18,415 nt of DNA from a plasmid: the sequence record CP014066.2; one strand, given 5' to 3'. The notes beneath the pieces are model-generated. The model did not search any database. It was not told the origin of the DNA and was given only the letters and a program-made list of their open reading frames with translations. Within the stretch, counting starts at the first letter, position 1. Each line of letters starts with the position of its first letter. Position numbers and translations under genes: made by a program. This document shows positions 4,919 to 18,180 of the stretch, piece after piece.

Positions 4919-4943
4919 GTGCAGTCGTCTTCTGAAAATGACA
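4919..4943 (-). repeat. IRt, 25-bp terminal inverted repeat of the Tn402/class 1 integron backbone (TGTCATTTTCAGAAGACGACTGCAC on the minus strand)
   Basis: Exact 25-mer. It follows the short tni-end remnant after IS6100, as in In4-type integrons. Confidence 0.9.
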
Positions 4944-5027
4944 TATGCGCCTAGCTCAAAACACCAGCCTTAAAGAGCCTTTTCAAGACAGTTTCAGCGC
5001 GATGGACTCGGGGGCAGGGAAGGGCTA

Positions 5028-5054
5028 TTATCACTAGGTATTACTATGTGATAA
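5028..5054. promoter_or_regulatory. Inverted repeat TTATCAC-N13-GTGATAA (with inner CACTAGGTA/TACTATGTG half-sites) 10 bp upstream of the antitoxin ATG; putative autoregulatory operator/promoter of the TA operon
   Basis: Palindrome read directly. The position is typical of RHH antitoxin operators. Confidence 0.5.
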
Positions 5055-5064
5055 GAGGCCCACT

Positions 5065-5337
5065 ATGGCAACGTCTCTCAAGATCGACGACACGCTGAAA
5101 GGTCGCGTCCAGCACCTCGCCAGCCAGCGCCGCCGCTCGCCCCACTGGATCATGCTCGAAGCGATCCAGCAGTACGTCGAGCGCGAAGAAGCCCGCGAGA
5201 GCTTCAAGCAGGAAGCCTTGGCGTCCTGGGCGGCCTACAAGGAAACCGGCCGCCACCTGACCGGCCAGGAAGTTCGCACCTGGTTGAACACCTGGGGCAC
5301 CAATGACGAAAGGGCGGTGCCTGAGTGCCACAAGTAA
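5065..5337 (+). CDS. Ribbon-helix-helix antitoxin (ParD/CopG-like) of a type II TA pair
   Basis: 90-aa product. N-terminal beta-strand/helix motif KIDDTLKGRVQHLA. Overlaps the downstream ParE/RelE-like gene by 13 nt. Confidence 0.7.
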   Translation: MATSLKIDDTLKGRVQHLASQRRRSPHWIMLEAIQQYVEREEARESFKQEALASWAAYKETGRHLTGQEVRTWLNTWGTNDERAVPECHK

Positions 5338-5618
5338 TCGTCACCGAAGGCGCGGCGGAAGGCTTGGAACGATGCCGGCGGTTCCTGGCCGTCAAGGCAC
5401 CGGACGCCGCCAGGCGTGCCGGCCAGGCCATCGAGCGGCAATTCCTGCTGCTGGAGACGGCCCCCGACATTGGCCGGCCGTTCCCTGAAATGCCCGAGCT
5501 GCGCGAGCTGGTGATTGCCTTCGGTGATTCCGGCTATGTGGCTTTGTACCGCCACGAACCGGCCGACGATGCGGTGTATGTTCTGGCCTTCCGGCACCAG
5601 AAAGAGGCGGGCTACTGA
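5325..5618 (+). CDS. ParE/RelE-family toxin (GTG start)
   Basis: 97-aa basic protein with a ParE-like C-terminus (...YVALYRHEPADDAVYVLAFRHQKEAGY). Classic antitoxin-toxin overlap. An RBS AAAGGG lies 8 nt upstream of the GTG. Confidence 0.65.
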   Translation: MPQVIVTEGAAEGLERCRRFLAVKAPDAARRAGQAIERQFLLLETAPDIGRPFPEMPELRELVIAFGDSGYVALYRHEPADDAVYVLAFRHQKEAGY

Positions 5619-5788
5619 TGACCACCAAGACCGTGAGCGCCGCCGTGCCGGCGGCCGTGAAGGCCGAAGCTGCCGCCGTCGCGGCCGCGCACGGCATGAG
5701 CATGGCCGCGCTACTGCGCGAGCTGCTGGCCCGCGTAGCCGCCCGCGATGCTGAAACGCTGGCCTGGCTCGATAAGGCCCGCCGATGA
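5618..5788 (+). CDS. Small RHH-fold protein (56 aa) not listed in the ORF track; its start overlaps the toxin stop (TGATG) and its stop overlaps the next ATG (ATGA)
   Basis: Product MTTKTVSAAVPAAVKAEAAAVAAAHGMSMAALLRELLARVAARDAETLAWLDKARR. It has an RHH-like beta-strand plus helix pattern and is translationally coupled on both sides. Confidence 0.45.
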   Translation: MTTKTVSAAVPAAVKAEAAAVAAAHGMSMAALLRELLARVAARDAETLAWLDKARR

Positions 5789-6393
5789 CCGACCCGAAGA
5801 ACCTGGAAAGCTGGCTGCATGAGAAGGCCGGCCCGGCCTATGACGCATTGAAGGCCGATCCGGCCCGCGCCGTCACGGCTGACCAGGTGCGCCGCACGCT
5901 CGATGAGCTGCTGGCCGAGGCCGAAGCAGCCGGCCAGCATCCATTGCCGCCCGAGCAACGCGAATGGGTGGATGCGCCTGCCGTTGGCCGCGAGTGGCCG
6001 GCCTGTGAAACCCTGGAAGCCGACCAGGTGCGCGCACGCCTGCATGACGACGCAATGGCCGAAGCCTTCCGCAAAGACCCGGCCTATGCGGTGGAACTGC
6101 TGAACAGCATCCTTGAGGATGGCGACCAGGACGAATTGCTGATCGCGCGCCGCCAGATAACGGAAGCGTTTAGTGAAAGGGTCGCCGACATTGCCCTGGC
6201 TATCGCGCTGGCCCGCCGCGTCGATGCGGGCCTGGACCCGCTGACGCCCTTCGACCCGGCCGAACATCTGACCACGGCCGAGGCCGTGGCCGCGCTCCTT
6301 GCCGACGCCGAAGCCACCGGCGATGCGGCTTACATCGAGCACGCGCACCAGGTCGCAGCACGTGCGCGAACCATGCACGGCCTGGAAGGGTAG
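5785..6393 (+). CDS. Acidic 202-aa protein. The N-terminus resembles a ParD C-terminal domain. It is followed by two tandem copies of a motif resembling the N-terminal (non-HTH) half of HigA-family 'addiction module antidote' proteins
   Basis: Internal repeat DPAYAVELLNSILEDGDQDELLIARRQITEA / DPAEHLTTAEAVAALLADAEATGDAAYIEHAHQVA. Strongly acidic composition. Fourth gene of the TA operon. Confidence 0.45.
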   Translation: MTDPKNLESWLHEKAGPAYDALKADPARAVTADQVRRTLDELLAEAEAAGQHPLPPEQREWVDAPAVGREWPACETLEADQVRARLHDDAMAEAFRKDPAYAVELLNSILEDGDQDELLIARRQITEAFSERVADIALAIALARRVDAGLDPLTPFDPAEHLTTAEAVAALLADAEATGDAAYIEHAHQVAARARTMHGLEG

Positions 6394-6567
6394 GGCTGGC
6401 CAGCATCGCCATTTCTGGCGGTGCTGCAGGAGGATCTCATCGCCGGAAATGACGATGCGAGATCCACGCCAAGGGAAAGGGCAGGGCGGCCGTCATCGCT
6501 CGATCTGGCGATGCTCGAGAACGCCGGCGCGCATCGTCGGAAACGGCGATGCAGGCCCGAAAACAAC

Positions 6568-6591
6568 AAGGGCGGCCACTGGCCGCCCTTA
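6568..6591 (-). terminator. Rho-independent terminator hairpin AAGGGCGGCCA-CT-GGCCGCCCTT. The T-rich tail is on the minus strand (GTTGTTTTC), so it terminates the leftward trbJ-...-orf77 array. It may also act weakly for the convergent TA operon
   Basis: 11-bp GC-rich perfect stem and 2-nt loop followed by a U-tract on the minus strand. Confidence 0.6.
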
Positions 6592-6607
6592 CTGTTCCTG
6601 GTGGGGC

Positions 6608-6841
6608 CTACGCGGTGAGTGACTGCCGCACCGCGTCCAGGGCCTGGCGGAAGTCGTCCCGCGTGGCTTGGCCCGTCTCGGCCTGGTAGTACAGCACCAT
6701 GAACATATTGGCGACGGCTTCCGCCATCGGCGAGAGCTGCCGCGCCGCCTCTTGGTCGATCCAGTCCAGGGCCGCGAGCTGTGCGGCCGCATGATGGACT
6801 GCCTGGGTTGCGATTGCATTGGTAGGATTCAAAGTTGCCAT
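6608..6841 (-). CDS. Hypothetical protein, 77 aa
   Basis: ATG start with RBS GAGGTG at good spacing. Protein-like composition. Directly followed by the terminator. Confidence 0.5.
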   Translation of the reverse strand: MATLNPTNAIATQAVHHAAAQLAALDWIDQEAARQLSPMAEAVANMFMVLYYQAETGQATRDDFRQALDAVRQSLTA

Positions 6842-6904
6842 GATTCACCTCTGTGGTAGGTGGGTTGTGGAAGTGTCGGCCGGCCCCACGCCGGCCGGCG
6901 CGCT

Positions 6905-7162
6905 TTACCGCTGGCCGCTGCTGTAGATGCCGGCGGCCTCGGCCAGCGGCGTGTTCCTGTTGCTGCCGCTGTAGCTGTTGCTCGATGACCTGGCCGCTGG
7001 CCTGGTGGCCTCGATGGCAGACGGGACAGGGCGATCAACGAAGGCCGCCACTTCCGCCGCTGCATCAAGCTCGGTTGATTGGTCGCCAGGCTGCTCAAAC
7101 TCCACCGCCTGACGCTGCACCTGGTCGAGCGCCAGGCAGTCGAAAAATCCACTACGTTTCAT
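6905..7162 (-). CDS. Hypothetical protein, 85 aa (ATG at 7162; the ORF track shows an upstream GTG)
   Basis: RBS GGAGG 7 nt upstream. The start lies 2 nt after the trbL stop. Confidence 0.45.
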   Translation of the reverse strand: MKRSGFFDCLALDQVQRQAVEFEQPGDQSTELDAAAEVAAFVDRPVPSAIEATRPAARSSSNSYSGSNRNTPLAEAAGIYSSGQR

Positions 7163-7164
7163 AG

Positions 7165-8826
7165 TCACGCCTCCGATTTACCGTGCTCGCGGTTGGCGAA
7201 CGCGGCCACTTCATCATCAGGATCGGCAGCGGCCGAATCGGCCCCTGCCAAGTTGTTGTCGCCGAATGTCGGCACCGCCTCGGCAGCGCCGGCCTGGTCG
7301 CTCTCCGCGCGCGCCCTGATCGCCGCCGCGATCTTCCCGCCGGTGGTGTCGGCGATGCGCTCGGCGGCGGCGGCGCGGATGCTGGCGGCCTTGGCCTTCG
7401 CAACCTCTCCGACGCCTTGCATCAGGTTCGCGCTGGCGTCGGCCGTCACGCGGCCCGCCGTGCCAAGCGCCGATGCGGCCGAGGCCAGCAAGCCGGGGCC
7501 GGTGCTGCCTGGTGCGGCCTGCTGGCCGCCTTGCTGGGCGTTCTTGTTGCCGGCGTCGTCGCCCCCTTTCGAGCTGGAACCGCCGCCCGATTTACCGGAC
7601 TGCTGCCCATTGCCGCCACCCGAACCGCTGGCACCTCTGCCCGAGCTGCTGCCGAAACCGGCGGCCTGTGCAAGTGGTGTAGTGGTGCCTGCACCTGAGC
7701 CTGACCCGCCACCAAAGCCAGCAGCTTGCGCAAACGAGCCAGCATCGCTGCCGGAGTCGGAGCCACCGCCGAGCATGGGCATTCCGCCCGATTCACCGCC
7801 AGCGCTCGATCCTGCTTTCTCGAACGCTGCCTTGATCGCCGACATGCCGCCGGCGGCCGAGGCTGCACCACCCATCACGGCCGCACCAGCCACGCTTGCC
7901 GCACCGGCGGCCATGCTCGCCGCGCCCATAGCCGCACCGATGGCAGCACCCGCGCCGAAGTTGCCGATGCCACCCGCGCCGCCGATACCCGAGCCGGTGA
8001 TGATGCCGGCGATGAGAGGGGGCACACGATTGACCAGCATGAGCAACGCCACGCAGAAAACCAGCATCACGCCCAGCTCTTCAAAGTTCAGCGTGCCGGT
8101 GTTCATCCTGGCGTAGAAGCTGGAAAGCAGGTCGTTCCCGATGCCGACCAGGAGCACCATCGTCATGATCTGCACGGCCACGCCCAGCACGGTCTTGTAG
8201 TAGTTGATCGCCATGTCGGACGTCCAACGCGAACCACCGAAGCCGAGGAAGAAGATGCCGGCGTACATCAGCAGCCAGCCCGAGACGAGCAGCAGCAGCA
8301 TATTCACGGCGACAACTGCCAGCAGGATCAGGATGCCAACGCTCAAGGCCACACCGATGAAGCTATCCACGGGCGACCAGATCGACGAGTTTGTGAATGC
8401 CTGCTTCAAGATCATGAAGCCGATATCCACGATGCCCGAGGGTGTCACCGATGCCACCCCGGATGCCTGCTCACCGATCCGGGCCAGTGACTGGATGATC
8501 GAGTTGGCGAAGGCGGGGCCGTTGCGCAGCAGCCAGAGGAAAAAGCCGAAGAACAGAATGAAGCGGATGAACTCGGCGAAGAACTCGCCAATGTCGGCCT
8601 TGCGCAGCGCCATGAAGCCGAACGTGAAAACCAGCGAGATCGTGCCCAGCGTCCAGAACAGGAACATCGCGGCATTCATCACCACCGTCTGCCAGGACGT
8701 GGCCCGCGTGGCGAACTCCGTCACCACCTGGTCAAGCATCCCCTGGTTGGTGAGCTGGGCCGATGCAGCGGTGGAGTAGAGCGCGAGGGTGACGCCGATC
8801 AGCGCCGCCTTGTGCAGTGCTTTCAT
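7165..8826 (-). CDS. trbL: TrbL/VirB6-family conjugal transfer membrane protein with a long Gly/Ala/Ser-rich C-terminal tail (553 aa)
   Basis: N-terminal signal sequence MKALHKAALIGVTLALYSTAASA. Multiple TM helices. Follows trbJ-trbK as in RP4. The track ORF 7165..8991 has no in-frame stop upstream, so its start was trimmed to the ATG with an RBS. Confidence 0.8.
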   Translation of the reverse strand: MKALHKAALIGVTLALYSTAASAQLTNQGMLDQVVTEFATRATSWQTVVMNAAMFLFWTLGTISLVFTFGFMALRKADIGEFFAEFIRFILFFGFFLWLLRNGPAFANSIIQSLARIGEQASGVASVTPSGIVDIGFMILKQAFTNSSIWSPVDSFIGVALSVGILILLAVVAVNMLLLLVSGWLLMYAGIFFLGFGGSRWTSDMAINYYKTVLGVAVQIMTMVLLVGIGNDLLSSFYARMNTGTLNFEELGVMLVFCVALLMLVNRVPPLIAGIITGSGIGGAGGIGNFGAGAAIGAAMGAASMAAGAASVAGAAVMGGAASAAGGMSAIKAAFEKAGSSAGGESGGMPMLGGGSDSGSDAGSFAQAAGFGGGSGSGAGTTTPLAQAAGFGSSSGRGASGSGGGNGQQSGKSGGGSSSKGGDDAGNKNAQQGGQQAAPGSTGPGLLASAASALGTAGRVTADASANLMQGVGEVAKAKAASIRAAAAERIADTTGGKIAAAIRARAESDQAGAAEAVPTFGDNNLAGADSAAADPDDEVAAFANREHGKSEA

Positions 8827-9092
8827 GGCTTCGCCCCCTTCTGGTCTTTCGGGTCGGCCAGTTCGAGCCAGTTCATGGGCTTCTCGGTCGGCGCGATGCC
8901 GCCGGCGGCTGGCGACCGGCGCGAGCACAGCCCGGCGAATTTCTCGCGCGTGGCCCTGTCCTCGATCTTCTTGATCGCCTCGATCTGGCAATTGGTGTCA
9001 TTGACCTCTGGCATGGGCGGGATGGCCGGCTTGTTGTCGCAGCCGGCCATCAGCACCACCACGAGGCCGGCAAGCAGCATCGTTTTCTTCAT
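8823..9092 (-). CDS. trbK: Small lipoprotein in the TrbK position (entry-exclusion protein candidate), 89 aa
   Basis: Lipobox LMAGC after a hydrophobic signal. Located between trbJ and trbL with ATGA overlap to trbL and an RBS GGAGG. Confidence 0.55.
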   Translation of the reverse strand: MKKTMLLAGLVVVLMAGCDNKPAIPPMPEVNDTNCQIEAIKKIEDRATREKFAGLCSRRSPAAGGIAPTEKPMNWLELADPKDQKGAKP

Positions 9093-9107
9093 GGTGCAGG
9101 GCCTCCG

Positions 9108-9893
9108 TCAGCGGGTCAGTTCGAGCCAGTTTCTCGGGCTTGCCGTGCGCTCGATCCTGGATTCCCTGGAAGTCGCGCCGGCGGCCTGCTGCTGCGCTTC
9201 AAGGTCGGCCTGCGCCTGCATCCTGGCGGTAGCGGCGTTCTGCTGCGCGATCAGCAAGCCACGGATTTGCAGGAGCTGGTTCGCCTGGTTGGCGGCGAGC
9301 TGGTTGGCGAAGCCGATAGCCTGCATCTGGCCGGTCGCGCCTTGTGCGGCCGACTGGAGCCGTTCGAGCTGGCGAGCGTCGGCGGTAAGGTTGCGCTGCT
9401 GCTGCTCCAGACCCTTGAAAAGCGCGTCGTTCGCCTTCTTCTGGCTCTCGCTCGACAGGCGGCGGTTTTGCTCCATCGCGGCGCGCTCGGCATCCGAGCA
9501 CCCGGCGGCCGAGAAGCACGGCGAGCTGCGGTAGTAGCTCACATCCTGGAATTTGCCCAGGTAGGCATCGAGACTGCCGAGCTGGTTCCTGTAGTAGTCC
9601 AGCGTGTTGACGGCATTCATCAGCCCGTTGATCGTGGACTGCGCCTGATCCCAGATGTAGGCCGCCGGGGCCATCGTGTTTTGCAGCATGTTCTCGTACT
9701 GCTGCAATTGGGTCTGGTACTGCTCGATCTGCTTGAGCGTCTGCGCCACCGACTCGATGGCCGTCATGACGTTCTGCACCAGGTTCCCGCCGTCGATGAC
9801 GGGGATGCCGGCCTGCGCTGGGGTGATGATGATGCTGCCGGCCAGGACGGCGGCGAGCGCGGTTTTAGCCGCTAAAAGGCGGACGTGCTTCAT
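9108..9893 (-). CDS. trbJ: TrbJ (VirB5-like) conjugal transfer protein, 261 aa
   Basis: Product MKHVRLLAAK...AQAGIPVIDGGNLVQNVMTAIESVAQTLKQIEQYQTQLQQYENMLQNT... closely parallels RP4 TrbJ from memory. Confidence 0.85.
   Translation of the reverse strand: MKHVRLLAAKTALAAVLAGSIIITPAQAGIPVIDGGNLVQNVMTAIESVAQTLKQIEQYQTQLQQYENMLQNTMAPAAYIWDQAQSTINGLMNAVNTLDYYRNQLGSLDAYLGKFQDVSYYRSSPCFSAAGCSDAERAAMEQNRRLSSESQKKANDALFKGLEQQQRNLTADARQLERLQSAAQGATGQMQAIGFANQLAANQANQLLQIRGLLIAQQNAATARMQAQADLEAQQQAAGATSRESRIERTASPRNWLELTR
9864..9876. promoter_or_regulatory. KorB-operator-type palindrome TTTAGCCGCTAAA (OB-like site 1), inside the 5' end of trbJ
   Basis: Exact match to the RK2 OB consensus TTTAGC(G/C)GCTAAA. 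One of four copies. Confidence 0.7.
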
Positions 9894-10083
9894 GGTCGAG
9901 TTCCTCGATGTGATGAAGTGGCTGCTCTGAACCGCACCTAGAAGATGCGGAGCTGGGCCATCACAGAGACAGCTCGCCACGTCGCGCTGTCCGGTACCCG
10001 ACCTTGGCGACACCGTTGCGCCCGGCCATTTTTGTTGAACATCGGTGTAGTGCTATCTAACGTCATTCGCGCCAGATAGCAAA

Positions 10084-10111
10084 ATTATACATTAAGCACG
10101 CATAACGACAA
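10084..10111 (-). promoter_or_regulatory. Sigma70-type promoter on the minus strand: -35 TTGTCG, 16-bp spacer, -10 TATAAT. Reads toward trbJ-trbK-trbL
   Basis: Perfect -10 hexamer. Paralogous to the parA promoter at 17136..17163. Confidence 0.55.
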
Positions 10112-10128
10112 GCACAAAAGCACGCAAT

Positions 10129-11961
10129 CTATCGCCCGCGCCCCTTGCCCTTGTCCTGGCGTTTGGCCTTCTTGGCTTCCATCTGCGCCCGTAGCCGTGC
10201 CTGGCGCTGTTCCAGCTCGGACGGCGCGGGCTTGGCCGGCTGCTGCACTTTGGCCGGCGGCGGTGTCGGGGTGGCCTGGGTCGGTGCTTGTGCCGGCCGC
10301 TGGGCTTCGCCCTCGATGTGCAGCCCGTCGAGCTGGCCCAACGTGCGCAGGCCATGCCGGCGATGCGGTGGCGGTTCCTGGCCGACAGGGGGCACACCCA
10401 GCCGGCGCTTGGCCTGGGCCTTGGTGGCCTCGGCCTGCCGCCGGCTTTCCAGTGCCGGATCGGCGAAGGTGATGGGGAGCTGGGCATCGACGGCCGCCCG
10501 GATCACGGCAGCCTTGAACTCCACGCTGCCGCTGACAGTGATGCGCTCGCCGTAGCGTTCCATTGCCAGGCGCAGCGCCGCCGCCACGCCGGCGCGGTCG
10601 GCCTGGCTGGACACGGCCAGACGCTCGCCGTCATCGCGCACGGCCGAGCTGCCGGCGCGGTAGATGATCGTGCCCTTCTTCGTGATGCTGTCGATCACCG
10701 GGGTATGGCCGGGCTTCGCCTGGCCGTCGCCCTGGATGGTGTCGCCCTTGAGGCCCTGGGCCGCCTCGCGGGCGCGCAGCGCATCGAGCGCCTGGCCGTC
10801 GCCGGCCGTTGCCTGCTGCTTGAGCCAGTCGGCCCACGGCCGCCGGCGGTGCTCGTTGTAGATCGCCGCCCGCTCCTGGTCGTGGCGCTTGTGGATCGCC
10901 TCCAGGTCGGCCCGCAGCGCGGCGCTGGCCTGGGCATACAGCAGCTTCTTGGTCAGCCGGCCATCGGTCAGGTGCTTGATGGCCGCCCGCCGGGTGGCCG
11001 CCGCCTTCTTGGCGTTCTCGATGGCCCGATCCTTCCGGCGCTTCGCCTCGGCCAGCACGCCGGCCCTGGCGGCCGTGAGGGTCTGCTGTGCGCCCTTGTA
11101 CCGGGCGTAAAGCTCGGTCGTGTCCAGGCCGCCGCGCAGACGCATCGGCCGGCCCTTCTGGTAGTTGCGCCGTGCCGGCGCGGCCTGGCGCTCGGGCGAC
11201 GCCTCGAACGTGCCAAGCCGCTTTTCCAGGGCAGGCTTGGACAGGTCGCGGGCCAAGGTGCTGGCCTTGATGATCGTGCCGTCGCCGGCCTCGATGACCA
11301 GGCCGTTACCGCGTGCGCGCAGCGCCAGGCCGTTATCGCGCATGACCTGGTGCAGCTCGGCCCAGCTCGCCGCGCCCTTGATCTCGTCCAGGCACTCGCG
11401 CTTGATCCAGCCGACCAGGCTTTCCACGCCGGCGTGCTGCTCCAGGTCGCCGGCCCTGGCGGCCGCGCCGCGCTGGCGTGACTCGTGGTTGTCACGCTCC
11501 AGGCCGTAGTCGCGTTCCAGGGTCGTGCAGAGGTCGGCCAGCGCCCGATGCGAGTAGTACGGCTCCTGCATCGTGCCCCTGGTCGGGTGAATCTTGTTGA
11601 TGGCGATGTGGATGTGCAGGTTGTCGGTGTCGTTATGCACGGCGCTGACGCGCTGATGCTCGCCCAGGCCCAGCCCGTCGCAGATGCGGGCCTCGATCTG
11701 CCGCAGGGTGTCGGCGCTCGGCTGCTCGCCGGCGCGAAAGCTGACGATCAGGTGATAGGTCTTGTCGCCCTTGGCCCGCGTGTTGGCCTGCTGGGTCGCC
11801 AGCACCTCGGTGATGGCATCGCGCACGGTGTCGGCGGCGCAGTTCGTGACCTGCACCTGGCCCAGCCGGTGGTCTTTGCTCTGCGCGTCGGTGACATACC
11901 GCACCAGGCCGGCGAAGTCGGACTTACCCAGCGAGCGCATGGGCACGTGCTTGGCGATCAC
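10129..11961 (-). CDS. traI: MobP-family relaxase TraI (GTG start), 610 aa
   Basis: N-terminus VIAKHVPMRSLGKSDFAGLVRYVTDAQ... and the HxH motif HNDTDNLHIHIAINKIHP match RP4 TraI. The start overlaps the traJ stop (GTGA). Confidence 0.88.
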   Translation of the reverse strand: MIAKHVPMRSLGKSDFAGLVRYVTDAQSKDHRLGQVQVTNCAADTVRDAITEVLATQQANTRAKGDKTYHLIVSFRAGEQPSADTLRQIEARICDGLGLGEHQRVSAVHNDTDNLHIHIAINKIHPTRGTMQEPYYSHRALADLCTTLERDYGLERDNHESRQRGAAARAGDLEQHAGVESLVGWIKRECLDEIKGAASWAELHQVMRDNGLALRARGNGLVIEAGDGTIIKASTLARDLSKPALEKRLGTFEASPERQAAPARRNYQKGRPMRLRGGLDTTELYARYKGAQQTLTAARAGVLAEAKRRKDRAIENAKKAAATRRAAIKHLTDGRLTKKLLYAQASAALRADLEAIHKRHDQERAAIYNEHRRRPWADWLKQQATAGDGQALDALRAREAAQGLKGDTIQGDGQAKPGHTPVIDSITKKGTIIYRAGSSAVRDDGERLAVSSQADRAGVAAALRLAMERYGERITVSGSVEFKAAVIRAAVDAQLPITFADPALESRRQAEATKAQAKRRLGVPPVGQEPPPHRRHGLRTLGQLDGLHIEGEAQRPAQAPTQATPTPPPAKVQQPAKPAPSELEQRQARLRAQMEAKKAKRQDKGKGRGR

Positions 11962-12335
11962 GATTGTCCGCCTCGCGGCCGCACCACGCTTTCCGCGATG
12001 GTGCTGATCTTGTCCTGGGTCGCCTCGATCCGGGCCAGCAGCGCCCGGATGGTGTCATCGCCGAAGCGGGCCGTGCGCGGGTCGTCGGTCAGCCAGAGCT
12101 TGAGCAGGCCGCCCAGCCGGCCGAGGTCGCCATTCACGCGCACCAGGTCGCGCACGTTCTCGAAGTCGGTCACGCCTTTGACCTGGTAGCCCTGGCCGAC
12201 CGCCAGCAGGTAGGCGGACGTGCTCATGCCGGCGGCCTGGGCGTTGGCCTCGATGGCGGCCCGTTCATCCGGCAGGCAATAGACCTTGATGGGCGTGCTG
12301 CCCTTCCTCGTTACCTTGTTCTCGTTGGCCTCCAT
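11958..12335 (-). CDS. traJ: Relaxosome accessory protein TraJ (oriT-binding), 125 aa
   Basis: Product ...GSTPIKVYCLPDERAAIEANAQAAGMSTSAYLLAVGQGY...NGDLGRLGGLLKLWLTDDPRTARFGD... is very similar to RP4 TraJ from memory. Confidence 0.85.
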   Translation of the reverse strand: MEANENKVTRKGSTPIKVYCLPDERAAIEANAQAAGMSTSAYLLAVGQGYQVKGVTDFENVRDLVRVNGDLGRLGGLLKLWLTDDPRTARFGDDTIRALLARIEATQDKISTIAESVVRPRGGQS

Positions 12336-12427
12336 CTTGGCGTCCTCTGTCGTTGCCGGCGGCCGCCGGCTGGCCCCGCAGGGCAGGATGCCCCGTTGAG
12401 CGCCGCAGGCGCGAATAAGGGGAAGTG

Positions 12428-12480
12428 AAGAGGATCACCATGCTTGCATGGTGGGCCTACTTCACACATCCTGCCCTCTA
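12428..12480 (+). other. oriT: oriT: TraJ-binding inverted repeat CACCATGC-TT-GCATGGTG (12428..12445) and nick region GGGCCTACTTCACACATCCTG|CCC (predicted nic between 12473 and 12474)
   Basis: Near-identical to the RP4 oriT nick region (GGGCCTACTTCACCTATCCTGCCC) from memory. Lies between divergent traJ and traK. Confidence 0.75.
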
Positions 12481-12690
12481 TTCAGCATTGCATTCAATGC
12501 GGAAACTATACACGCGCCATTGTGGATTTGCATGGTATCTAGCAAGGAAACCTAGCGCCTATGGATGCAACACGGCAAAATGCAGGGGAATCCGCTTGCT
12601 TGCAGGACTTCACGCGCCGTTTCAGCGCATATTCCATGTGCTTTCCACTAGCTTTACACACATGAACCCGCGTGCATTACACAAACAGGA

Positions 12691-13119
12691 ATGAAGCCGA
12701 TGGGAACCCGATACACCGATGAACTTGCCGCCTGGGCCGATCAGAAGGCCGAGAAGAAGCGCCGCCAGGACGCGGCGGCAGTAGCGTTTCTGGCGGTGCG
12801 CGGGGATGTGGTCGAGGCAATGGAAGCCGGCTACGCGCTGACGACGATCTACGATCACATGCACGAAACCGGCCGGGTGAAAACCAGCTATGAGACGTTC
12901 CGCCGGCACGTCCAGCGGTTCATCAAGGCAGCGCCGGCCGACACCGCGCCGCCGACACCGAAGGCCGCCACCAGGTCGGCCAGCAACTCGCCGACCACCG
13001 TTCCAGCCGTCACGCCAAAGCCGGCCGTACCAGCTCCGGCCAGCCCTGCCAGCGAGCAAGCCGGGAAGATTCCCAGCTTCAATTTCAACCCGACGCCGAA
13101 CAAAGAGGACTTGCTGTAA
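12691..13119 (+). CDS. traK: TraK oriT-binding relaxosome protein (alternative start at 12700), 142 aa
   Basis: Product ...YTDELAAWADQKAEKKRRQDAAAVAFLAVRGDVVEAMEAGYALTTIYDHMHETGRVKTSYETFRRHV... parallels RP4 TraK. Divergent from traJ across oriT. Confidence 0.8.
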   Translation: MKPMGTRYTDELAAWADQKAEKKRRQDAAAVAFLAVRGDVVEAMEAGYALTTIYDHMHETGRVKTSYETFRRHVQRFIKAAPADTAPPTPKAATRSASNSPTTVPAVTPKPAVPAPASPASEQAGKIPSFNFNPTPNKEDLL

Positions 13120-13180
13120 GCGCCCCAAGGGGCAAGTCGGACGCCAAGGGGAATATGCGTGCTGTTTGCCTTGCGTGCTT

Positions 13181-13193
13181 TTTAGCGGCTAAA
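13181..13193. promoter_or_regulatory. KorB-operator-type palindrome TTTAGCGGCTAAA (OB-like site 2), preceded by the TTGCGTGCTTTT motif shared with the two TATAAT promoters
   Basis: Exact 13-mer. Confidence 0.7.
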
Positions 13194-13197
13194 GCGT

Positions 13198-13247
13198 GCC
13201 CCTCAAGTGTCAATGTGCTGCCTGGGCTTTATTGACACTTGAGGGGC
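13198..13247. repeat. Perfect 17-bp inverted repeat GCCCCTCAAGTGTCAAT-N16-ATTGACACTTGAGGGGC. Each arm contains the RK2 oriV iteron sequence TGACACTTGAGGGGC
   Basis: Arms at 13198..13214 and 13231..13247 are exact reverse complements. Located between the convergent traK and kfrA 3' ends. Confidence 0.8.
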
Positions 13248-13253
13248 GGTCGA

Positions 13254-14159
13254 TCACTCGCCGCCGGGCTTTTTCCTGGTCGGCTTCGCCTCGGCCGCCG
13301 GCGGCGTGATGCGAGCCAGCAGCGCGGCCGATTGTTCCTTGAGCGTGTCGAGCTGCCCGGCCAGGCGGGCGGCTTCCTCGCGGGCCTGTGCGGCCGCCTT
13401 CGTGGCCTGGTCGCGCTCGGCCTGGGCGGCGGTGAGGCGTTCGGCCATGCGATGTGCCTCGCCCGCTGTGGCCTTGCGCTGTTCCTGGTGAGCTTCCTCG
13501 CTGGCCTCGGCCTTGGCCTGTACCTTCACCAGCTCGGCGCGCACCTGGTCGAGTTGAGCGGCGGCCGCCTGGCTGGCCTTCTGCTGTTCAGCCAGTGCCC
13601 CGCGTGCCTGGTCGGCGTCCTGGTGCGCCCTGTCCAGTTCCGTGCGCAGCTCGCCGGCCCGGCGCTCGATCTCTTGGGCGCGGGCCTCTGCCGTGTGCGC
13701 CTGTTCCTGGGCGGTAGCCAGTTGGCCGCGCAGCTCGTCGGCTTCGCCGCGTGCGGCCGCTTCGGCGGCCTCGATGGACGCCAGGCGGGATTGCAGGGCT
13801 TCCACGTCGCCGGCCAGTTTGTCGGCCAGCTCGGTTGCCTCGTTGCGGTCGGCTTCCAGCTCGGCGCGGGCCTTCTCCAGCCCTTCCCGCTCAACGGCAA
13901 GGCGGGCGTTCGCCAGGTCGAGGGCGATTGTCCATAGGTCGCTGCCCAGTTCGGCCAGGCGGTCGGCGACGGCCTGGGGCGCAGGCTCGCGCAGGGGCGC
14001 GGCGGCGGTGGCCTGGCGGGCCTTCCACTCGTTCAGGGCCGGGGAAATGGTTGTGTAGCTCCCGCCGGTGATCTGCCGGATTGCCTCAAGCGTGGGCTTC
14101 TGGCCGGCGGCGGCCAAGTCGTCGGCGGCGGAAAAAATCTGCTCTTTCGTGACTGCCAT
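13254..14159 (-). CDS. kfrA: KfrA: N-terminal DNA-binding domain plus long Ala/Glu/Gln-rich coiled-coil, 301 aa
   Basis: N-terminus MAVTKEQIFSAADDLAAAGQKPTLEAIRQITGGSYTTISPALNEWKARQ parallels IncP-1 KfrA. Alanine-rich heptad-like tail. RBS AGGAG. Confidence 0.85.
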   Translation of the reverse strand: MAVTKEQIFSAADDLAAAGQKPTLEAIRQITGGSYTTISPALNEWKARQATAAAPLREPAPQAVADRLAELGSDLWTIALDLANARLAVEREGLEKARAELEADRNEATELADKLAGDVEALQSRLASIEAAEAAARGEADELRGQLATAQEQAHTAEARAQEIERRAGELRTELDRAHQDADQARGALAEQQKASQAAAAQLDQVRAELVKVQAKAEASEEAHQEQRKATAGEAHRMAERLTAAQAERDQATKAAAQAREEAARLAGQLDTLKEQSAALLARITPPAAEAKPTRKKPGGE

Positions 14160-14189
14160 AGCGGTTGCTCCTGTATGAAATGTAGTGTT

Positions 14190-14230
14190 GTAGTATGTTG
14201 TATGATACTACTACATACTACGATTTACAA
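14190..14230 (-). promoter_or_regulatory. kfrA promoter/operator. Inverted repeat GTAGTATG-N16-CATACTAC with internal GTTGTA/TACTAC direct repeats overlaps a putative -10 TATCAT (reverse complement of 14202..14207) and -35 TTGTAA (reverse complement of 14225..14230), 17-bp spacing
   Basis: Palindrome and hexamers read directly. KfrA is known to autoregulate through a palindromic operator. Confidence 0.55.
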
Positions 14231-14839
14231 GCCCTACAGGAAAATACTACGCCGCTACCCTGGGGCCAGCCCGGCCGCGAGCGCGTGACGGTCGAAATTC
14301 GGCCCTGGAAGGCCCGTAGAGGCGTTTTTAGGGGGTCGGCGGCCCTACCCCCTGGCCTCGGCCGGTTTCGCGCCTCCTGGGCGCTCCTGGGTGGCCTGGC
14401 CGTGGTGCGCTTGGGCCTGCATCGTTGGATGTGGCGATGCTGGCCAGCTCGCCCGCCCTTTTTCTTGGCGTTCAACCTGCGGCCTTCCAGCTCGCGCCGG
14501 CGGTCGAGATTGGGCACGACCTCGGCAAACCGCTTTTCCTGCTAAACCTGCTTTTCTTGGGCTGTCGAGTTGCCGCGGTGCTCGATGAGTGTGCAGGCGG
14601 TGGAGCTGTCACCGGCGCGGCTTGCCGCGCTCTTGGTAAGCCAGTCCTGGCCGTTAGGCCAGGCACGATTGCCGGAGGGGGAGCCGGCGAAGCCGGGGGA
14701 ACCCCGCAGGGGTGCCCCGCCGAAGGCGCAGGCCGGCGCCGTAGGCGACGGGGCGGAGGGCCGAAGGCCCGGAGGGTAGGCGCGCCCGTAGGGCGTTGCG
14801 GCGGTTCGGTTTGCGCTGTCGGTTGAGTTTTCCACCGAT

Positions 14840-15147
14840 TTGGCCTGCCTATTACCAGCAATAAATTTATAGGAAAGACATTAAAGGCAAACCTTACAGG
14901 TTTAGGGGGGGGGCGATTTCACGAACCAGGGGGGGGGCGATTTCACGTGGATAAGCCACCCAAGGGGGGGGCGATTTCACGAACCAGGGGGGGGCGATTT
15001 CACGTGGATAAGTGCGGCTATCCACAGGGTTTGTCCCCAGTTCAGGGCCTGGCCGAGGGGTGTGTGCCTGGTCAGCCCTGAAACGACGCGGCCGCCTCGA
15101 TCTCGGGGCGGCCGGTGCGGTGCTGTAAGGGGGGGGGCGATTTCACG
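14840..15147. repeat. oriV: oriV candidate. AT-rich tract 14840..14895, then five direct iterons G(8-9)CGATTTCACG at 14896..14913, 14919..14937, 14954..14971, 14977..14994 and 15129..15147. DnaA-box-like sequences lie at 14936..14945 and 15003..15012 (CGTGGATAAG, i.e. TTATCCACG on the minus strand) and 15019..15026 (TATCCACA)
   Basis: Repeats read directly, spaced ~23 bp apart in pairs. Adjacent to the 3' end of the rep gene. Confidence 0.75.
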
Positions 15148-15149
15148 AA

Positions 15150-15161
15150 GTTTAGCTAAAC
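15150..15161. promoter_or_regulatory. KorA-operator-type 12-bp palindrome GTTTAGCTAAAC (OA-like), overlapping the rep stop codon and abutting iteron 5
   Basis: Exact match to the RK2 OA consensus. Single copy in the window. Confidence 0.6.
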
Positions 15162-16166
15162 CGTGGGGCCGCCCTTGTAGGGGATGGGCGGTGGCGAGCC
15201 GATCAGCAGCACGCCGCCGGTGACAGGCTTCACCCTCGCTTGCGGATAGACGGCCAGCACCTTCTTGAGCGCCGGCAAAAACTCCTTCTTGAAGTCCTTG
15301 TCGGGGTCTTTGCCTCGGTACTCCTGGGCGAACTGCTCGCGCAGCGCCTTCCAGTGCAACGTCACACCTCGGCCTTCGATGCGGTGCAGTCGGTGGGCCA
15401 GCCACGCATACACGTCCAGGGCCAGCGCGGAACCTTTCAGGGCGTGCAGAGCGCGATTGTCCAGCGGCACGGCGCTTTCGATCAGGGAGCCGTAGTAGTC
15501 CTCTGACAGCACCATGACGCCGGGCCATAGGGCGCGCTGCTGCGTGTCCTTGTTCGACACCCAGGCGTCGAATTGCTGCACCGGCTGGCCGTTGTAGGTG
15601 CGCCCCTTGAACCCGAGTTGCAGGCGAGCGGCGGCAAGGGCGTGCATCTGCTTCCGTAGCGTCGTGTAGCGGCGGCCGTCGCTCTCCATCCCCATCAGCC
15701 GCAGGAACTCGGCGGCACTGTCGCCGATGGGAATCTCCCGCTCCTTGTTGCGCACGGCGAAGGTGGAAACCCACGCCAGACCAAGCCGGGGCATGACGCC
15801 ATAGGGGATAGGTTGCAGCACCGGCCCCTTCCCTTCGTCCAGATAGCCGGCCTGGACATTGACCCAGGCCGCGCCGGACTGTCGCATGAACTCACGGCCT
15901 TCGACCTTGGCGCGAGGCAAACCGACCTGGCACAGCACCGCATGAGTGAAAGCCATGTCCTCGCCGGCCGGCGGGGTGGTGGCAATCTCCGCGCTGGCCT
16001 CGATCAGCTTCTGGTCGGCCCCGGTCAAGATGAGGCCGGCCGGCGTGATCTTCTTGGTTTGGCGCTTCGGCGGCGGCAATGCTGCCTTGGCCTGCGCCTG
16101 GGCCACCAGGTCGCCCATGATCTCGCCGATCTGCTGCGCGCCCTGCCCTTCTCGCTTCTTGGTCAT
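15156..16166 (-). CDS. trfA: Plasmid replication initiator, TrfA-family (probable), 336 aa
   Basis: Balanced, protein-like composition in contrast to the overlapping junk ORFs. Adjacent to the iterons. RBS GGAGGG. Recognised as TrfA-like from memory, not from a computed alignment. Confidence 0.65.
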   Translation of the reverse strand: MTKKREGQGAQQIGEIMGDLVAQAQAKAALPPPKRQTKKITPAGLILTGADQKLIEASAEIATTPPAGEDMAFTHAVLCQVGLPRAKVEGREFMRQSGAAWVNVQAGYLDEGKGPVLQPIPYGVMPRLGLAWVSTFAVRNKEREIPIGDSAAEFLRLMGMESDGRRYTTLRKQMHALAAARLQLGFKGRTYNGQPVQQFDAWVSNKDTQQRALWPGVMVLSEDYYGSLIESAVPLDNRALHALKGSALALDVYAWLAHRLHRIEGRGVTLHWKALREQFAQEYRGKDPDKDFKKEFLPALKKVLAVYPQARVKPVTGGVLLIGSPPPIPYKGGPTV

Positions 16167-16180
16167 GCTGGTGGCCCTCC

Positions 16181-16193
16181 TTTAGCGGCTAAA
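16181..16193. promoter_or_regulatory. KorB-operator-type palindrome TTTAGCGGCTAAA (OB-like site 3), 2 bp upstream of the rep RBS in the 29-bp parG-rep intergenic gap
   Basis: Exact 13-mer. Confidence 0.7.
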
Positions 16194-16195
16194 AG

Positions 16196-16447
16196 TCAAT
16201 GGCCGTGCCGCTTCTCGTACTCATCGAAGGCCAAGCGCAGCAGCTCGTTCAGCTTGAGGTCGTGATTGGCTGCGAACACGCGGAAGCGGCGGCGAAGGTC
16301 GGCCGACACGCGAAAGTTCAGCGGCACATTGTTGGCCTCTGCTTCCTCGGCCGGCGCTGCGCTGCGGGCTGGCACGTTGGCAACTGGCGCGGCCTGGCCC
16401 TTGGTTGCGACCAGGCCGGAAAGGTCGGCGGGTTTCTTGGCTGCCAT
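16196..16447 (-). CDS. Small RHH centromere-binding-type partition protein (ParG/ParB-small-like), 83 aa
   Basis: C-terminal RHH signature NVPLNFRVSADLRRRFRVFAANHDLKLNELLRLAFDEY. Immediately follows parA (stop and start adjacent). Confidence 0.6.
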   Translation of the reverse strand: MAAKKPADLSGLVATKGQAAPVANVPARSAAPAEEAEANNVPLNFRVSADLRRRFRVFAANHDLKLNELLRLAFDEYEKRHGH

Positions 16448-17098
16448 TTATACGGTTTCCTTCTTTTTGGTTTTCGTCTTTACGTGCAAGCGTTCAAGCA
16501 CGAAAGACAATAATTGTCGCATTTCCTCGGCGCTTCGGCTCTTGGCGTCTGTCTCGCTCACTGTGCGGCCATCGACCATCGAGGCCGCGTAATCCACGCG
16601 GTCATGCACGATTGCCGGAGCCACGGCCCCATGCGCTGACAGGGCGGCGACGGCCTGCACGGTCAGCCTGGCGGTCGGCTTGGCCTGGGTGACGGCAAAG
16701 GCGAACGGCCGGCCGGCTTCCTGAGCAATATCCACGGTGCTGCCAACAGCGCGCAGGTCGTGCGGGCTGGGCCTCGTCGGGATCAGCACCAGGTCGGCCA
16801 GCTTCACCACGTCGCGGATGGCGGCCGTAATCGCCGGCGGCGTGTCGATGACGGCCAGCTTGAACCCTGCCGCTGCCAGGCCCTCTAGCTTCGTCGCCAG
16901 CTCGGCCAGGCTGGCCGATGCCAGCGCGGGCGTATCGGCCTCGCGCGAGTTCCACCAGGCCGACAGCGAGCCTTGCGGGTCGGTGTCGATCAGGACTGCC
17001 GGCCCTGCGCCCTCCTGCTCGGCTGTGACGGCCAGGTGAGCGGCAAGGGTAGTCTTGCCCGCGCCGCCCTTCTGGCTTGCTATGACGATGGTTTTCAT
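16448..17098 (-). CDS. parA: ParA-family partition ATPase (small type Ib), 216 aa
   Basis: Deviant Walker A KGGAGKTT at the N-terminus (MKTIVIASQKGGAGKTTLAAHLAV). Confidence 0.85.
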   Translation of the reverse strand: MKTIVIASQKGGAGKTTLAAHLAVTAEQEGAGPAVLIDTDPQGSLSAWWNSREADTPALASASLAELATKLEGLAAAGFKLAVIDTPPAITAAIRDVVKLADLVLIPTRPSPHDLRAVGSTVDIAQEAGRPFAFAVTQAKPTARLTVQAVAALSAHGAVAPAIVHDRVDYAASMVDGRTVSETDAKSRSAEEMRQLLSFVLERLHVKTKTKKKETV

Positions 17099-17135
17099 TC
17101 TGCTTTGCGTGCCTCCGAGCTAAGACAATATGGCA

Positions 17136-17163
17136 ATTATACGCCATTAACGCATAGCAGCAA
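17136..17163 (-). promoter_or_regulatory. Sigma70-type promoter on the minus strand: -35 TTGCTG, 16-bp spacer, -10 TATAAT. Apparently the sole promoter for the parA-parG-rep operon
   Basis: Perfect -10. An OB-like site lies 27 bp upstream of the -35. Confidence 0.55.
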
Positions 17164-17189
17164 GCACAAAAGCACGCAAAGCAGATAAT

Positions 17190-17202
17190 TTTAGCCGCTA
17201 AA
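17190..17202. promoter_or_regulatory. KorB-operator-type palindrome TTTAGCCGCTAAA (OB-like site 4), overlapping the resolvase stop codon and upstream of the parA promoter
   Basis: Exact 13-mer. Confidence 0.7.
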
Positions 17203-18106
17203 GTTTGCGCCGCCGCGCCCGCTCGGTGTCTGCCAGGTCGCCGGGCCACGTCGCCAGCTCGTCATCGGTGAGGCCCGCCAGGATTTGCGGCAGGTTTTGG
17301 GTTCGGTACGGGGGCATCGGCAGATCAGCGGCCGGGCCTTCATCATCATCTAGGAAAGCCGGCTCGGGCAGCTCGGCCGCGCCCTGCTCCACGTCGGCCG
17401 CCTCGCCGGCGTCGGCCTCGGTCAATGCGTCCTCCACGAAAGCGCCATGCCTGGCCGCCTCGGCCTGGCTCATGTCACGGCTGGCCCATATCCGTTTGAC
17501 CTGGGCCACGCTGCACCCGGCCAGCTTGGCCGTCTCCGCGATGCTCTGGCCGATGCTGCGCAACGCGATCACCTGGGCGCGTAGCTTCGGATCGGCCCGC
17601 CGTCCCTTGTAGCGGCCGTCCCGCTTCGCCAGCTCGATGCCCTGGCGCTGCCGCTCGCGCCTGTCCTCGTAGTCGTCGCGGGCCATCTGTAGGGCCAGCT
17701 TCAAAAGCATGTCCTGGACGGATTCCAGGACGATCTTGGCGACGCCCTGGGCCTCGGCCGCCAGGTCGGATAGATCGACCACGCCAGGGACGGCCAGGCG
17801 CGCACCCTTGGCCCGGATCGAGGCCACCAGGCGCTCGGCCTCGGGCAAGGGTAGGCGGCTGATGCGGTCGATCTTCTCGGCAATGACCACCTCGCCCGGT
17901 TGCAGGTCGGCCACCATGCGCAGCAGCTCGGGCCGGTCAGCGCGTGCGCCGCTGGCTTTCTCGCGGTAGATGCCGGCCACGTAGTACCCGGCGGCCTTCG
18001 CGGCCGTGATGATCCCTTCCTGGCGTTCAAGGTCTTGCGCGTCGGTGCTGACGCGCAGATAGACCCGCGCCACCATCGGCGCGGCTGCTGGCTTCGTCCT
18101 GCTCAT
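17198..18106 (-). CDS. Serine recombinase (resolvase family) with an acidic C-terminal extension. Start chosen at the ATG preceded by AAGGAG (an alternative upstream ATG lies at 18124)
   Basis: N-terminal catalytic motif VARVYLRVSTDAQDLERQ. Occupies the position of RK2 ParA resolvase, divergent from the ParE-type TA operon. Confidence 0.8.
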   Translation of the reverse strand: MSRTKPAAAPMVARVYLRVSTDAQDLERQEGIITAAKAAGYYVAGIYREKASGARADRPELLRMVADLQPGEVVIAEKIDRISRLPLPEAERLVASIRAKGARLAVPGVVDLSDLAAEAQGVAKIVLESVQDMLLKLALQMARDDYEDRRERQRQGIELAKRDGRYKGRRADPKLRAQVIALRSIGQSIAETAKLAGCSVAQVKRIWASRDMSQAEAARHGAFVEDALTEADAGEAADVEQGAAELPEPAFLDDDEGPAADLPMPPYRTQNLPQILAGLTDDELATWPGDLADTERARRRKL

Positions 18107-18180
18107 GCTGGCTCCTTTGGGCATACCTGAATGCGCCTATCGTAGCCCGGCAGGCTCATTTATCAAAGCACGATCTATAT

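Follow-up and report, generated by a model that had tools for sequence, protein, structure and literature searches.

A predicted IncN/SGI1-type oriV with G-run-headed iterons next to the RepA_C gene of plasmid CP014066.2

The replicon of Salmonella genomic island 1 (SGI1) has been characterised by two groups (PMC7826253, Szabo et al. 2021; PMC7433901, Huguet et al. 2020). Its Rep is a RepA_C protein with 60% identity to RepA of pXAC64, described as IncN2/N3-related. The oriV is found directly downstream of repA and comprises four repeats (consensus GGGGGHRATTATGCGY), several DnaA boxes adjoining or overlapping them, and an AT-rich region that contains an inverted repeat (PMC7826253; PMC7433901). 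With RepA provided in trans, a 155-bp core can replicate, and replication is independent of PolA (PMC7826253; PMC7433901). Loss of one or two repeats, or of the AT-rich inverted repeat, abolishes replication, and RepA shifts both a four-repeat fragment and a single-repeat fragment in gels (PMC7826253).

The IncN group was represented in this study by pAZ1114-3, pLH87-a-B, and p07B18002_A_KPC. Its classical studied member is pCU1, which is also cited in PMC7826253. The IncN origin consists of a TTTTCCAC box, an AATTA..AGG AT-rich block ending in ACCTTACAGGTTTA, iterons headed by G6-10, TGGATAAC, and a GGGTTATCCACA box; the five iterons are contiguous, their tails are (C/T)(A/G)ATTTAACG or ATTTATCT, and a TrfB-related gene lies beside the origin. 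A further set of related plasmids, pNOR-2000, pAMBL1, pAER-a82d, and pMRCP1333, belongs to MOB-suite rep_cluster_995. The TrfA-oriV system of RK2/IncP-1 shares the general logic of tandem iterons, DnaA boxes, and an AT-rich element; its iterons are tandem 17-bp repeats with the core TGACAnnTGAGGGGC.

The stretch of DNA analysed here (sequence record CP014066.2, 18,415 nucleotides), from a small antibiotic-resistance plasmid, is referred to as the window. By homology, the region at about 14828-15147 is very probably the oriV of an iteron-controlled theta replicon of the IncN/SGI1 type, served by the adjacent RepA_C initiator. The window origin is a further example of the IncN/SGI1-type RepA_C iteron replicons, an origin type that has already been characterised. 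Experimental work on the window plasmid or its immediate clade was not found in the literature surveyed.

Repeats, initiator, and other elements of the origin region

The initiator gene and the repeats beside it are as follows.

15156..16166, minus strand: repA, 336 aa; Pfam RepA_C (PF04796), E=6.6e-20
14905..14923, plus strand: iteron 1, G9 + CGATTTCACG; G-run 14905-14913
14929..14947, plus strand: iteron 2, G9 + CGATTTCACG; G-run 14929-14937
14964..14981, plus strand: iteron 3, G8 + CGATTTCACG; G-run 14964-14971
14987..15004, plus strand: iteron 4, G8 + CGATTTCACG; G-run 14987-14994
15129..15147, plus strand: iteron 5, solitary, G9 + CGATTTCACG; G-run 15129-15137; 143 bp from iteron 4

The original prediction of five direct repeats, arranged as two pairs and a single copy, was confirmed: GGGGGGGGCGATTTCACG occurs five times without mismatch on the plus strand (14906, 14930, 14964, 14987, and 15130). 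Dinucleotide-preserving shuffles contained a mean of 0.04 matches, with five or more copies in none of 200, and a search of the whole 18.4 kb for a sixth copy with up to three mismatches found none. The G-runs read from the sequence are 9, 9, 8, 8, and 9 long, in agreement with the earlier observation of eight versus nine, and all G/C homopolymers of at least 7 in the window are inside the five iterons. Iterons 1-2 and iterons 3-4 form two near-identical units, each laid out as iteron, AACCA, iteron, TGGATAAG, with 31 nt identical between them. The repA stop codon (15156-15158) is 8 bp from iteron 5 and 151 bp from iteron 4. The tail CGATTTCACG, allowing one mismatch, is confined to the five iterons and is absent upstream of repA and parA. 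Since a KorB-operator-type palindrome rather than an iteron lies upstream of repA, expression of the gene is probably not iteron-controlled.

The initiator was initially thought to be TrfA-like, but this was rejected. RepA_C is the only Pfam family found in RepA, even at E<=10, and a TrfA domain is also absent from the other scanned ORFs of the window. RepA is 70-72% identical to three IncN RepA proteins over 285 aa (E about 1e-146); its identity is 100% to the protein of pMRCP1333, 96% to that of pNOR-2000, 95.5% to that of pAMBL1, and 80% to that of pKAM339_3. A large protein collection holds more than 1,600 relatives, all with PF04796, and an NCBIfam search with RepA gave no meaningful match. 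The AlphaFold2 model, made with a 30-sequence alignment, has a mean pLDDT of 35, and sequence and profile searches of the PDB with RepA returned no matches; a winged-helix (WH1-WH2) binding mode for RepA, as in the fold class of RepE, pi, and pPS10 RepA, therefore rests on the literature, where RepA_C proteins are placed among the winged-helix initiators (preprint, bioRxiv 10.1101/2024.09.03.610885). The claim that the iterons are unrelated to those of RK2 was upheld: TGACAnnTGAGGGGC has no match with up to three mismatches in 14800-15200, and the only two matches in the window are at 13198-13247.

The remaining elements of the region are listed below. DnaA-box-like sequences are 9-mers with one mismatch to TTWTNCACA, the E. 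coli consensus, unless stated otherwise.

14828..14836, plus strand: DnaA-box-like TTTTCCACC, 1 mismatch, on the repA-distal flank of the AT-rich tract
14850..14904: AT-rich tract, candidate unwinding element, with TTAnAGG-type 7-mers at 14852, 14867, 14881, and 14894
14946..14954, minus strand: DnaA-box-like TTATCCACG, 1 mismatch, overlapping the last 2 bp of iteron 2
15003..15011, minus strand: DnaA-box-like TTATCCACG, 1 mismatch, overlapping the last 2 bp of iteron 4
15018..15026, plus strand: DnaA-box-like CTATCCACA, 1 mismatch, forming an inverted pair with the box at 15003
15031..15039, plus strand: degenerate third box TTGTCCCCA, 2 mismatches, read from the alignment; the weakest element
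15089..15114: GC-rich inverted repeat CGGCCGCCTCGA/TCGGGGCGGCCG, separating iteron 5 from the core of the origin
15150..15161: 12-bp perfect palindrome GTTTAGCTAAAC, which takes in the repA stop codon and has exactly the sequence of the RK2 KorA operator OA; sole copy in the window
16181..16193: palindrome TTTAGCGGCTAAA that fits the consensus of the RK2 KorB operator, 15 bp upstream of the repA ATG

The number of one-mismatch boxes in the whole window (14, with about 9 expected) is not above chance, so only their clustering, with four of the 14 within 200 bp, and their conservation count as evidence. Boxes had been predicted after the second iteron of each pair. Both are present, but the first TTATCCACG is at 14946-14954 rather than at 14936-14945. 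The TATCCACA at 15019-15026, which had been placed between the pairs, actually follows the second pair. In the candidate unwinding element the 7-mers are 13-15 bp apart, and GC content is 30% at 14850-14899 compared with 60-84% on both flanks. The inverted repeat at 15089-15114 is conserved in the rep_cluster_995 clade and may form a hairpin in the repA transcript. In and near the origin, Rfam gave only a chance let-7 match below threshold, and a promoter and terminator scan of 14100-17300 gave nothing beyond the shuffle expectation.

Relatives of the origin and its likely mode of action

The 321-bp origin region has matches in 188 plasmid records. Twenty-odd of these were fetched for comparison together with 14 genome or metagenome contigs from a search for the iteron-plus-box pattern, and 21 origins were aligned. 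The order common to all 21 is a box, the AT-rich block, poly-G-headed iterons, a TGGATAA box, and a TATCCACA-type box; GGGTTTATCCCC follows the last of these in some relatives only. Each aligned origin has four or five iterons, every one headed by a G-run. This order is seen in IncN, Xanthomonas pXap41 and plb, Burkholderia pPHB194, Salmonella pWES-1, and the GES-5 plasmid pG5A4Y413, and also in an Agrobacterium pAt plasmid, pNOR-2000, pAMBL1, and the window. Element by element, the region can be aligned with origins from IncN plasmids and from many plasmids of Pseudomonas, Xanthomonas, Aeromonas, and Burkholderia, and in all relatives compared the oriV is directly downstream of the repA stop. 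Although poly-G iterons had been considered unusual, the poly-G head is an old, conserved hallmark of the whole origin family and is not peculiar to the window plasmid. Two other candidate connections were discarded: the pMOS94 lineage has another replicon, with iterons TTCGTCACTCCAGGGACCG, and the IncP-6 (Rms149) iterons are described in papers from the Zhou laboratory as 17-bp GCGCCTGCCTTTGAGTA repeats, which are unrelated.

Conservation differs among the elements. At the position of the 14828 box, TT(T/A)TCCAC is kept from IncN plasmids to the clade of the window, and the AT-rich block AATTAC..AAATTTATAGG..TTAAAGG..ACCTTACAGGTTTA (its end also written ACC(T/G)TAC(A/C)GGTTTA) is conserved family-wide. 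The box after iteron 2 (14946) occurs in some clades only, while TGGATAA follows the last iteron of the array in all aligned origins, including IncN, except Xcf_plb (GGGATAA). The 15018 box is conserved in most non-IncN sequences of the alignment, with altered forms in Agro_pAt3 (TAATCCACA), Xcf_plb (CATCTACA), pPHB194 (AGTCCACA), and pG5A4Y413 (TCATCCACA). The third box is TTATCCCCA in pNOR-2000, pAMBL1, and Azonexus, among others, and is variable elsewhere. The position of iteron 5 is kept in relatives, at a core-to-core distance of 138-151 bp.

The window and SGI1 both have a RepA_C (PF04796) initiator with the oriV immediately downstream of repA, repeats that open with a G-run and close with an AT-containing tail terminating in CG (GGGGGHRATTATGCGY in SGI1, G8-9CGATTTCACG in the window), DnaA boxes next to or overlapping these repeats, and, on the far side, an AT-rich region that holds short repeats. 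SGI1, compared here by its published description, differs in having G5 runs and another tail sequence where the window has G8-9, and a solitary fifth iteron at the repA stop is not part of that description. In SGI1, repA (encoding RepA/S003) is expressed from a helper-dependent AcaCD promoter with an S004 leader, whereas repA of the window follows a parA-RHH pair and a KorB-operator-type palindrome. In addition, SGI1 is an integrated island and the window element is a plasmid. IncN resembles the window in RepA (70-72% identical) and in an origin that aligns throughout, but its contiguous array contrasts with the two pairs of the window, it is without the solitary iteron at the repA stop, and its TrfB-related gene stands where the window has KfrA. 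Members of rep_cluster_995 are closest in detail, with the tail CGATTTCACG, the 2+2+1 layout, the palindrome at the repA stop, and RepA 96-100% identical to that of the window. They differ in G-run length (9, 8, 8, 7, 8 in pNOR-2000; 6, 6, 5, 5, 9 in pMRCP1333), and the first-pair spacer is TGGAAA in pNOR-2000 but AACCA in the window. RK2/IncP-1 differs from the window both in the initiator, since RepA is without a TrfA domain, and in the iterons of the oriV.

An origin of the IncN/SGI1 type should have at least four direct repeats, each starting with a G-run and continuing into an (A/G)AT-type tail that finishes in CG; the window has five such copies. Because the window origin matches the SGI1 description feature by feature, the iteron-oriV reading is well supported by homology. 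The original prediction, in which an iteron-type oriV combines DnaA boxes and an AT-rich tract with a rep gene beside it, thus stands, as the region aligns with IncN/RepA_C origins and the SGI1 homologue is proven (PMC7826253, PMC7433901). Origin function, binding of RepA to the repeats, and PolA independence were demonstrated for that homologue and are expected by analogy in the window plasmid.

On the same basis, RepA would bind the four tandem 18-19 bp iterons (G8-9 + CGATTTCACG) and host DnaA would bind the boxes that overlap iterons 2 and 4, together with the inverted partner box at 15018. RepA and DnaA together would then open the 30% GC tract at 14850-14904, followed by helicase loading. 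The G-run would serve as the family-conserved head of the iteron, and the 10-bp tail as the part recognised in a clade-specific manner. Iteron 5 is probably outside the minimal origin, and could be guessed to be an auxiliary or copy-control site acting, for example, in handcuffing.

A different function for the repeats was also considered. Upstream of repA, on the same strand, are genes for a resolvase, a ParA ATPase, and an 83-aa ribbon-helix-helix protein, with KfrA on the opposite side of the origin. The direct repeats could be the partition site (centromere) or operator of this ParA/RHH (ParG-like) system, since the array ends the same-strand resolvase-parA-RHH-repA run. Type Ib centromeres are likewise arrays of short direct repeats. 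If this were so, the repeats would be expected to follow the partition protein, but pAMBL1 and pKAM339_3 have an identical ParG (WP_003159117.1) and different tails (CGATTTCACG and TCTGATCTATCG, respectively). The iteron tail is 10-12 bp long and varies by clade, being CGATTTCACG, TCCGATTTCACG, TCTGATCTATCG, TGCGATTTATCG, CGATTCAGCG, or YRATTTAACG, and judged from these sequences it tracks the RepA clade and not the partition protein. The centromere reading was rejected for this reason and is extremely improbable. Other observations also oppose it: the IncN loci used here (about 2.6 kb each) carry the repeat array without an annotated parA or parG, the DnaA boxes and the AT-rich tract are features of an origin, and SGI1 has repeats of the same kind that are bound by RepA and essential for replication (PMC7826253).

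Lengths of the G-runs

The varying G-runs were originally proposed to cause phase-variable initiator binding or copy number. In this explanation they would be a slippage-driven contingency switch, in which added or lost G residues alter iteron spacing or RepA affinity, and origin firing or copy number varies heritably and reversibly as a result. Lengths among relatives with the same iteron tail do range from 5 to 10, although these are consensus assemblies. A case in favour is pMRCP1333, which differs from the window by one substitution in 4,467 bp but is shorter by exactly three G in every one of iterons 1-4 (6, 6, 5, 5), so that its core spacing is 21/31/20 compared with 24/34/23. Its iteron 5 and nearby G5 runs are the same as in the window, and the concerted loss is therefore unlike general homopolymer compression; either it is a polishing artefact specific to the repeats, or the iterons really did contract in concert. 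Against a switch, an independent metagenome contig with 14 SNPs in 4,367 bp and no gaps has exactly 9/9/8/8/9 and spacing identical to the window, which indicates that the window lengths are reproducible and stable over that divergence. Six independently sequenced copies of pXap41 show no substitutions over 480 bp, their only differences being in the lengths of the G-runs; in the two outliers, strains R1 and T1, every G-run is shortened, including the G5 runs that are not in iterons. Both of these are Nanopore R9/Flye assemblies polished with Pilon (PMC8914263). Much of the G-run variation between records is demonstrably technical, and comparison between records is confounded by sequencing technology. 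Length also appears to be restrained. Clades with G6-7 have TC/TG after the run and clades with G8-9 do not, the distance from the start of the run to the GAT of the tail being 9-10 in each case, and nearly all relatives have core-to-core spacings of 22-25 / 33-34 / 22-23. The constancy of both distances points to a length constraint and not to free variation. The phase-variable proposal was thus unsupported, and a contingency switch is very unlikely.

The difference between eight and nine, or the exact lengths in the window, could themselves be sequencing or assembly errors that conceal uniform runs. Several platforms are prone to errors in homopolymers of 8-9, technical length errors do occur in database relatives, and the lengths in pNOR-2000, pAER-a82d, and others disagree by plus or minus 1. 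The same lengths were nevertheless obtained in the independent assembly of the slightly diverged relative, and in this family the iterons within one origin as a rule differ by one G. This explanation is unlikely, though it is more credible than the switch. The earlier warning that the G-runs are a likely source of assembly error is justified for database relatives such as pXap41, but the lengths in the window itself are corroborated by the independent contig.

A related idea is that the G-runs act as both a conserved head and a tunable element, in which slippage, a frequent event at G8-9, would shift the register of the iterons and might also affect whether paired G-runs can fold into a G-quadruplex on the unwound G-rich strand, so that lineages drift or switch between copy-number states. 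A canonical G4 motif, with loops of up to 7 nt, is absent and only a long-loop quadruplex could form. ViennaRNA with the G4 option, which uses an approximate energy model, predicts a four-layer quadruplex from iterons 1 and 2; this long-loop structure from the paired G9 runs is a possibility and does not count as evidence. Such a tunable element is a long shot. If it did exist, the concerted loss of three G in pMRCP1333 would be a real example of it, and a contingency locus would have been described within a replication origin for the first time. The reading preferred here is that long G-runs are a feature shared across the family and a recognised hazard in sequencing, rather than a demonstrated genetic switch.

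Plasmid backbone and implications for resistance plasmids

About 72% of the window (4943-18180) matches the IMP-1 plasmid pMRCP1333 at 99.9%; the integron segment differs, with an aadB-type adenylyltransferase and sul1 in the window. The transfer/kfrA/par backbone is 96% identical to that of pMATVIM-7, but the rep gene of pMATVIM-7 is different, encoding a 491 aa HTH protein assigned to IncP by MOB-suite. The shared backbone with a different rep gene indicates that the RepA_C replicon module was swapped onto that backbone. For the pPE52IMP/pMATVIM-7 family it was stated that no iterons or origin were found (PMC9501424); given the different rep gene of pMATVIM-7, this statement concerns another replicon. 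The pNOR-2000 type is conjugative (MOBQ/MPF_T), while the window has the MOBP backbone of the pMATVIM-7 type.

Several RK2-type cis elements are also present in the window. The position of the GTTTAGCTAAAC palindrome is conserved within the clade, and the KorB-operator-type palindrome upstream of repA, one of four in the backbone, is conserved in relatives. The G-centred variant TTTAGCGGCTAAA is presumably also a form of OB. The sequences of OA and of one OB (TTTAGCCGCTAAA) are given in PMC2680271. Two perfect TrfA-type iterons TGACACTTGAGGGGC form an inverted pair at 13198-13247, downstream of kfrA and 1.7 kb from the oriV; this pair is the RK2-type inverted repeat named in the original prediction. 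Among the ORFs scanned in the window, cognate genes for these RK2-type elements were not detectable, and as the window has no TrfA, the pair at 13198-13247 is not a rival binding site for its RepA.

The rep_cluster_995 replicon and its relatives carry VIM, IMP, GES, and KPC carbapenemase genes in Pseudomonas, Aeromonas, Enterobacterales, and Achromobacter; the oriV of replicons of this type is mostly unannotated among the records retrieved. If G-run length did tune copy number, it would be a simple mutational mechanism linked to resistance-gene dosage. As four to five runs of G8-10 are systematically mis-called in long-read assemblies, origin "variants" in databases should not be taken as biology. 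The practical value of the present assignment is in the annotation of resistance-plasmid origins. Because iteron tails change with the RepA clade, incompatibility determinants can be predicted from them, and placing the origin with the IncN/SGI1 type makes the SGI1 two-plasmid assay available as an experimental template.

RK2-type operator and iteron sequences

A perfect 12-bp palindrome, GTTTAGCTAAAC, occurs once within the window, and its sequence is identical to that of the KorA operator (OA) of the IncP-1 plasmid RK2 (OA taken from PMC2680271). It is kept at the position of the repA stop codon across the whole rep_cluster_995 clade, and pMATVIM-7 also has it, upstream of a rep gene that is unrelated to this repA (L023 3895-3906). 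Palindromes of the RK2 KorB-operator type, TTTAGCSGCTAAA, are present in four perfect copies, a count reached in none of 200 shuffles, and the copy preceding repA is kept in relatives. The consensus of the RK2 TrfA iteron, TGACACTTGAGGGGC, has two perfect matches downstream of kfrA, which form a 17-bp inverted repeat with arms 16 bp apart. This inverted pair is kept in pMATVIM-7, pNOR-2000, pMRCP1333, and several metagenome contigs.

RK2-type sites in the window
15150-15161, GTTTAGCTAAAC palindrome spanning the repA stop codon, 2 bp past iteron 5
9864-9876, TTTAGCSGCTAAA palindrome near the trbJ start
13181-13193, TTTAGCSGCTAAA palindrome downstream of kfrA
16181-16193, TTTAGCSGCTAAA palindrome 15 bp upstream of the repA ATG
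17190-17202, TTTAGCSGCTAAA palindrome upstream of parA
13198-13212, minus strand, TrfA-type iteron
13233-13247, plus strand, TrfA-type iteron

Within the window, no KorA/TrfB-family or TrfA gene was found and no KorB/ParB-family gene was detected. The TTTAGCSGCTAAA palindromes may be bound by the 83-amino acid RHH protein encoded beside parA, or by KorB from a helper IncP-1 plasmid.

G-run lengths and the origin flank

Across the 480-bp origin region, the six pXap41 records have no substitutions, and G-run lengths are the sole differences. In strains R1 and T1, both Nanopore R9 assemblies, all G-runs are shortened, including non-iteron G5 runs, despite Pilon polishing; the deposited sequences of these two strains probably contain homopolymer errors in the origin. 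pMRCP1333 (L001 3206-3436, compared with window 14905-15147) differs from the window by one substitution across 4,467 bp. Its iterons 1-4 are each exactly 3 G shorter (6, 6, 5, and 5) and iteron 5 is unchanged at G9, a pattern that may have arisen from an assembly artefact specific to the repeats or from a genuine concerted contraction.

The interval between kfrA and the origin is GC-rich (up to 84%) and contains overlapping ORFs, neither with a Pfam match, one of which is a hypothetical protein in the pMRCP1333 annotation.

14542-14835, minus strand, ORF
14195-14545, plus strand, ORF

Because its right-hand end (about 14780-14830) is kept together with the origin in relatives, this stretch may be non-coding DNA flanking the origin.

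Backbone and replicon module

The window carries integron-type resistance genes at 911-1660 and 2071-2997, one an ORF of the aminoglycoside 2''-adenylyltransferase family and the other a sul1-type dihydropteroate synthase, as well as toxin-antitoxin genes.

5065-5618, ParE/RHH toxin-antitoxin genes
6608-6841, ptaRNA1-type toxin gene

From 5768 to 18145, the window shares its transfer, kfrA, and par backbone with pMATVIM-7 (NC_009739; L021-L023) at 96% identity, but the rep gene of pMATVIM-7 differs, encoding a 491-amino acid HTH protein typed as IncP by MOB-suite. At the place of that gene, the window has the RepA_C replicon that it has in common with pNOR-2000. The difference between the window and pMATVIM-7 is a swapped replicon module on a common backbone.
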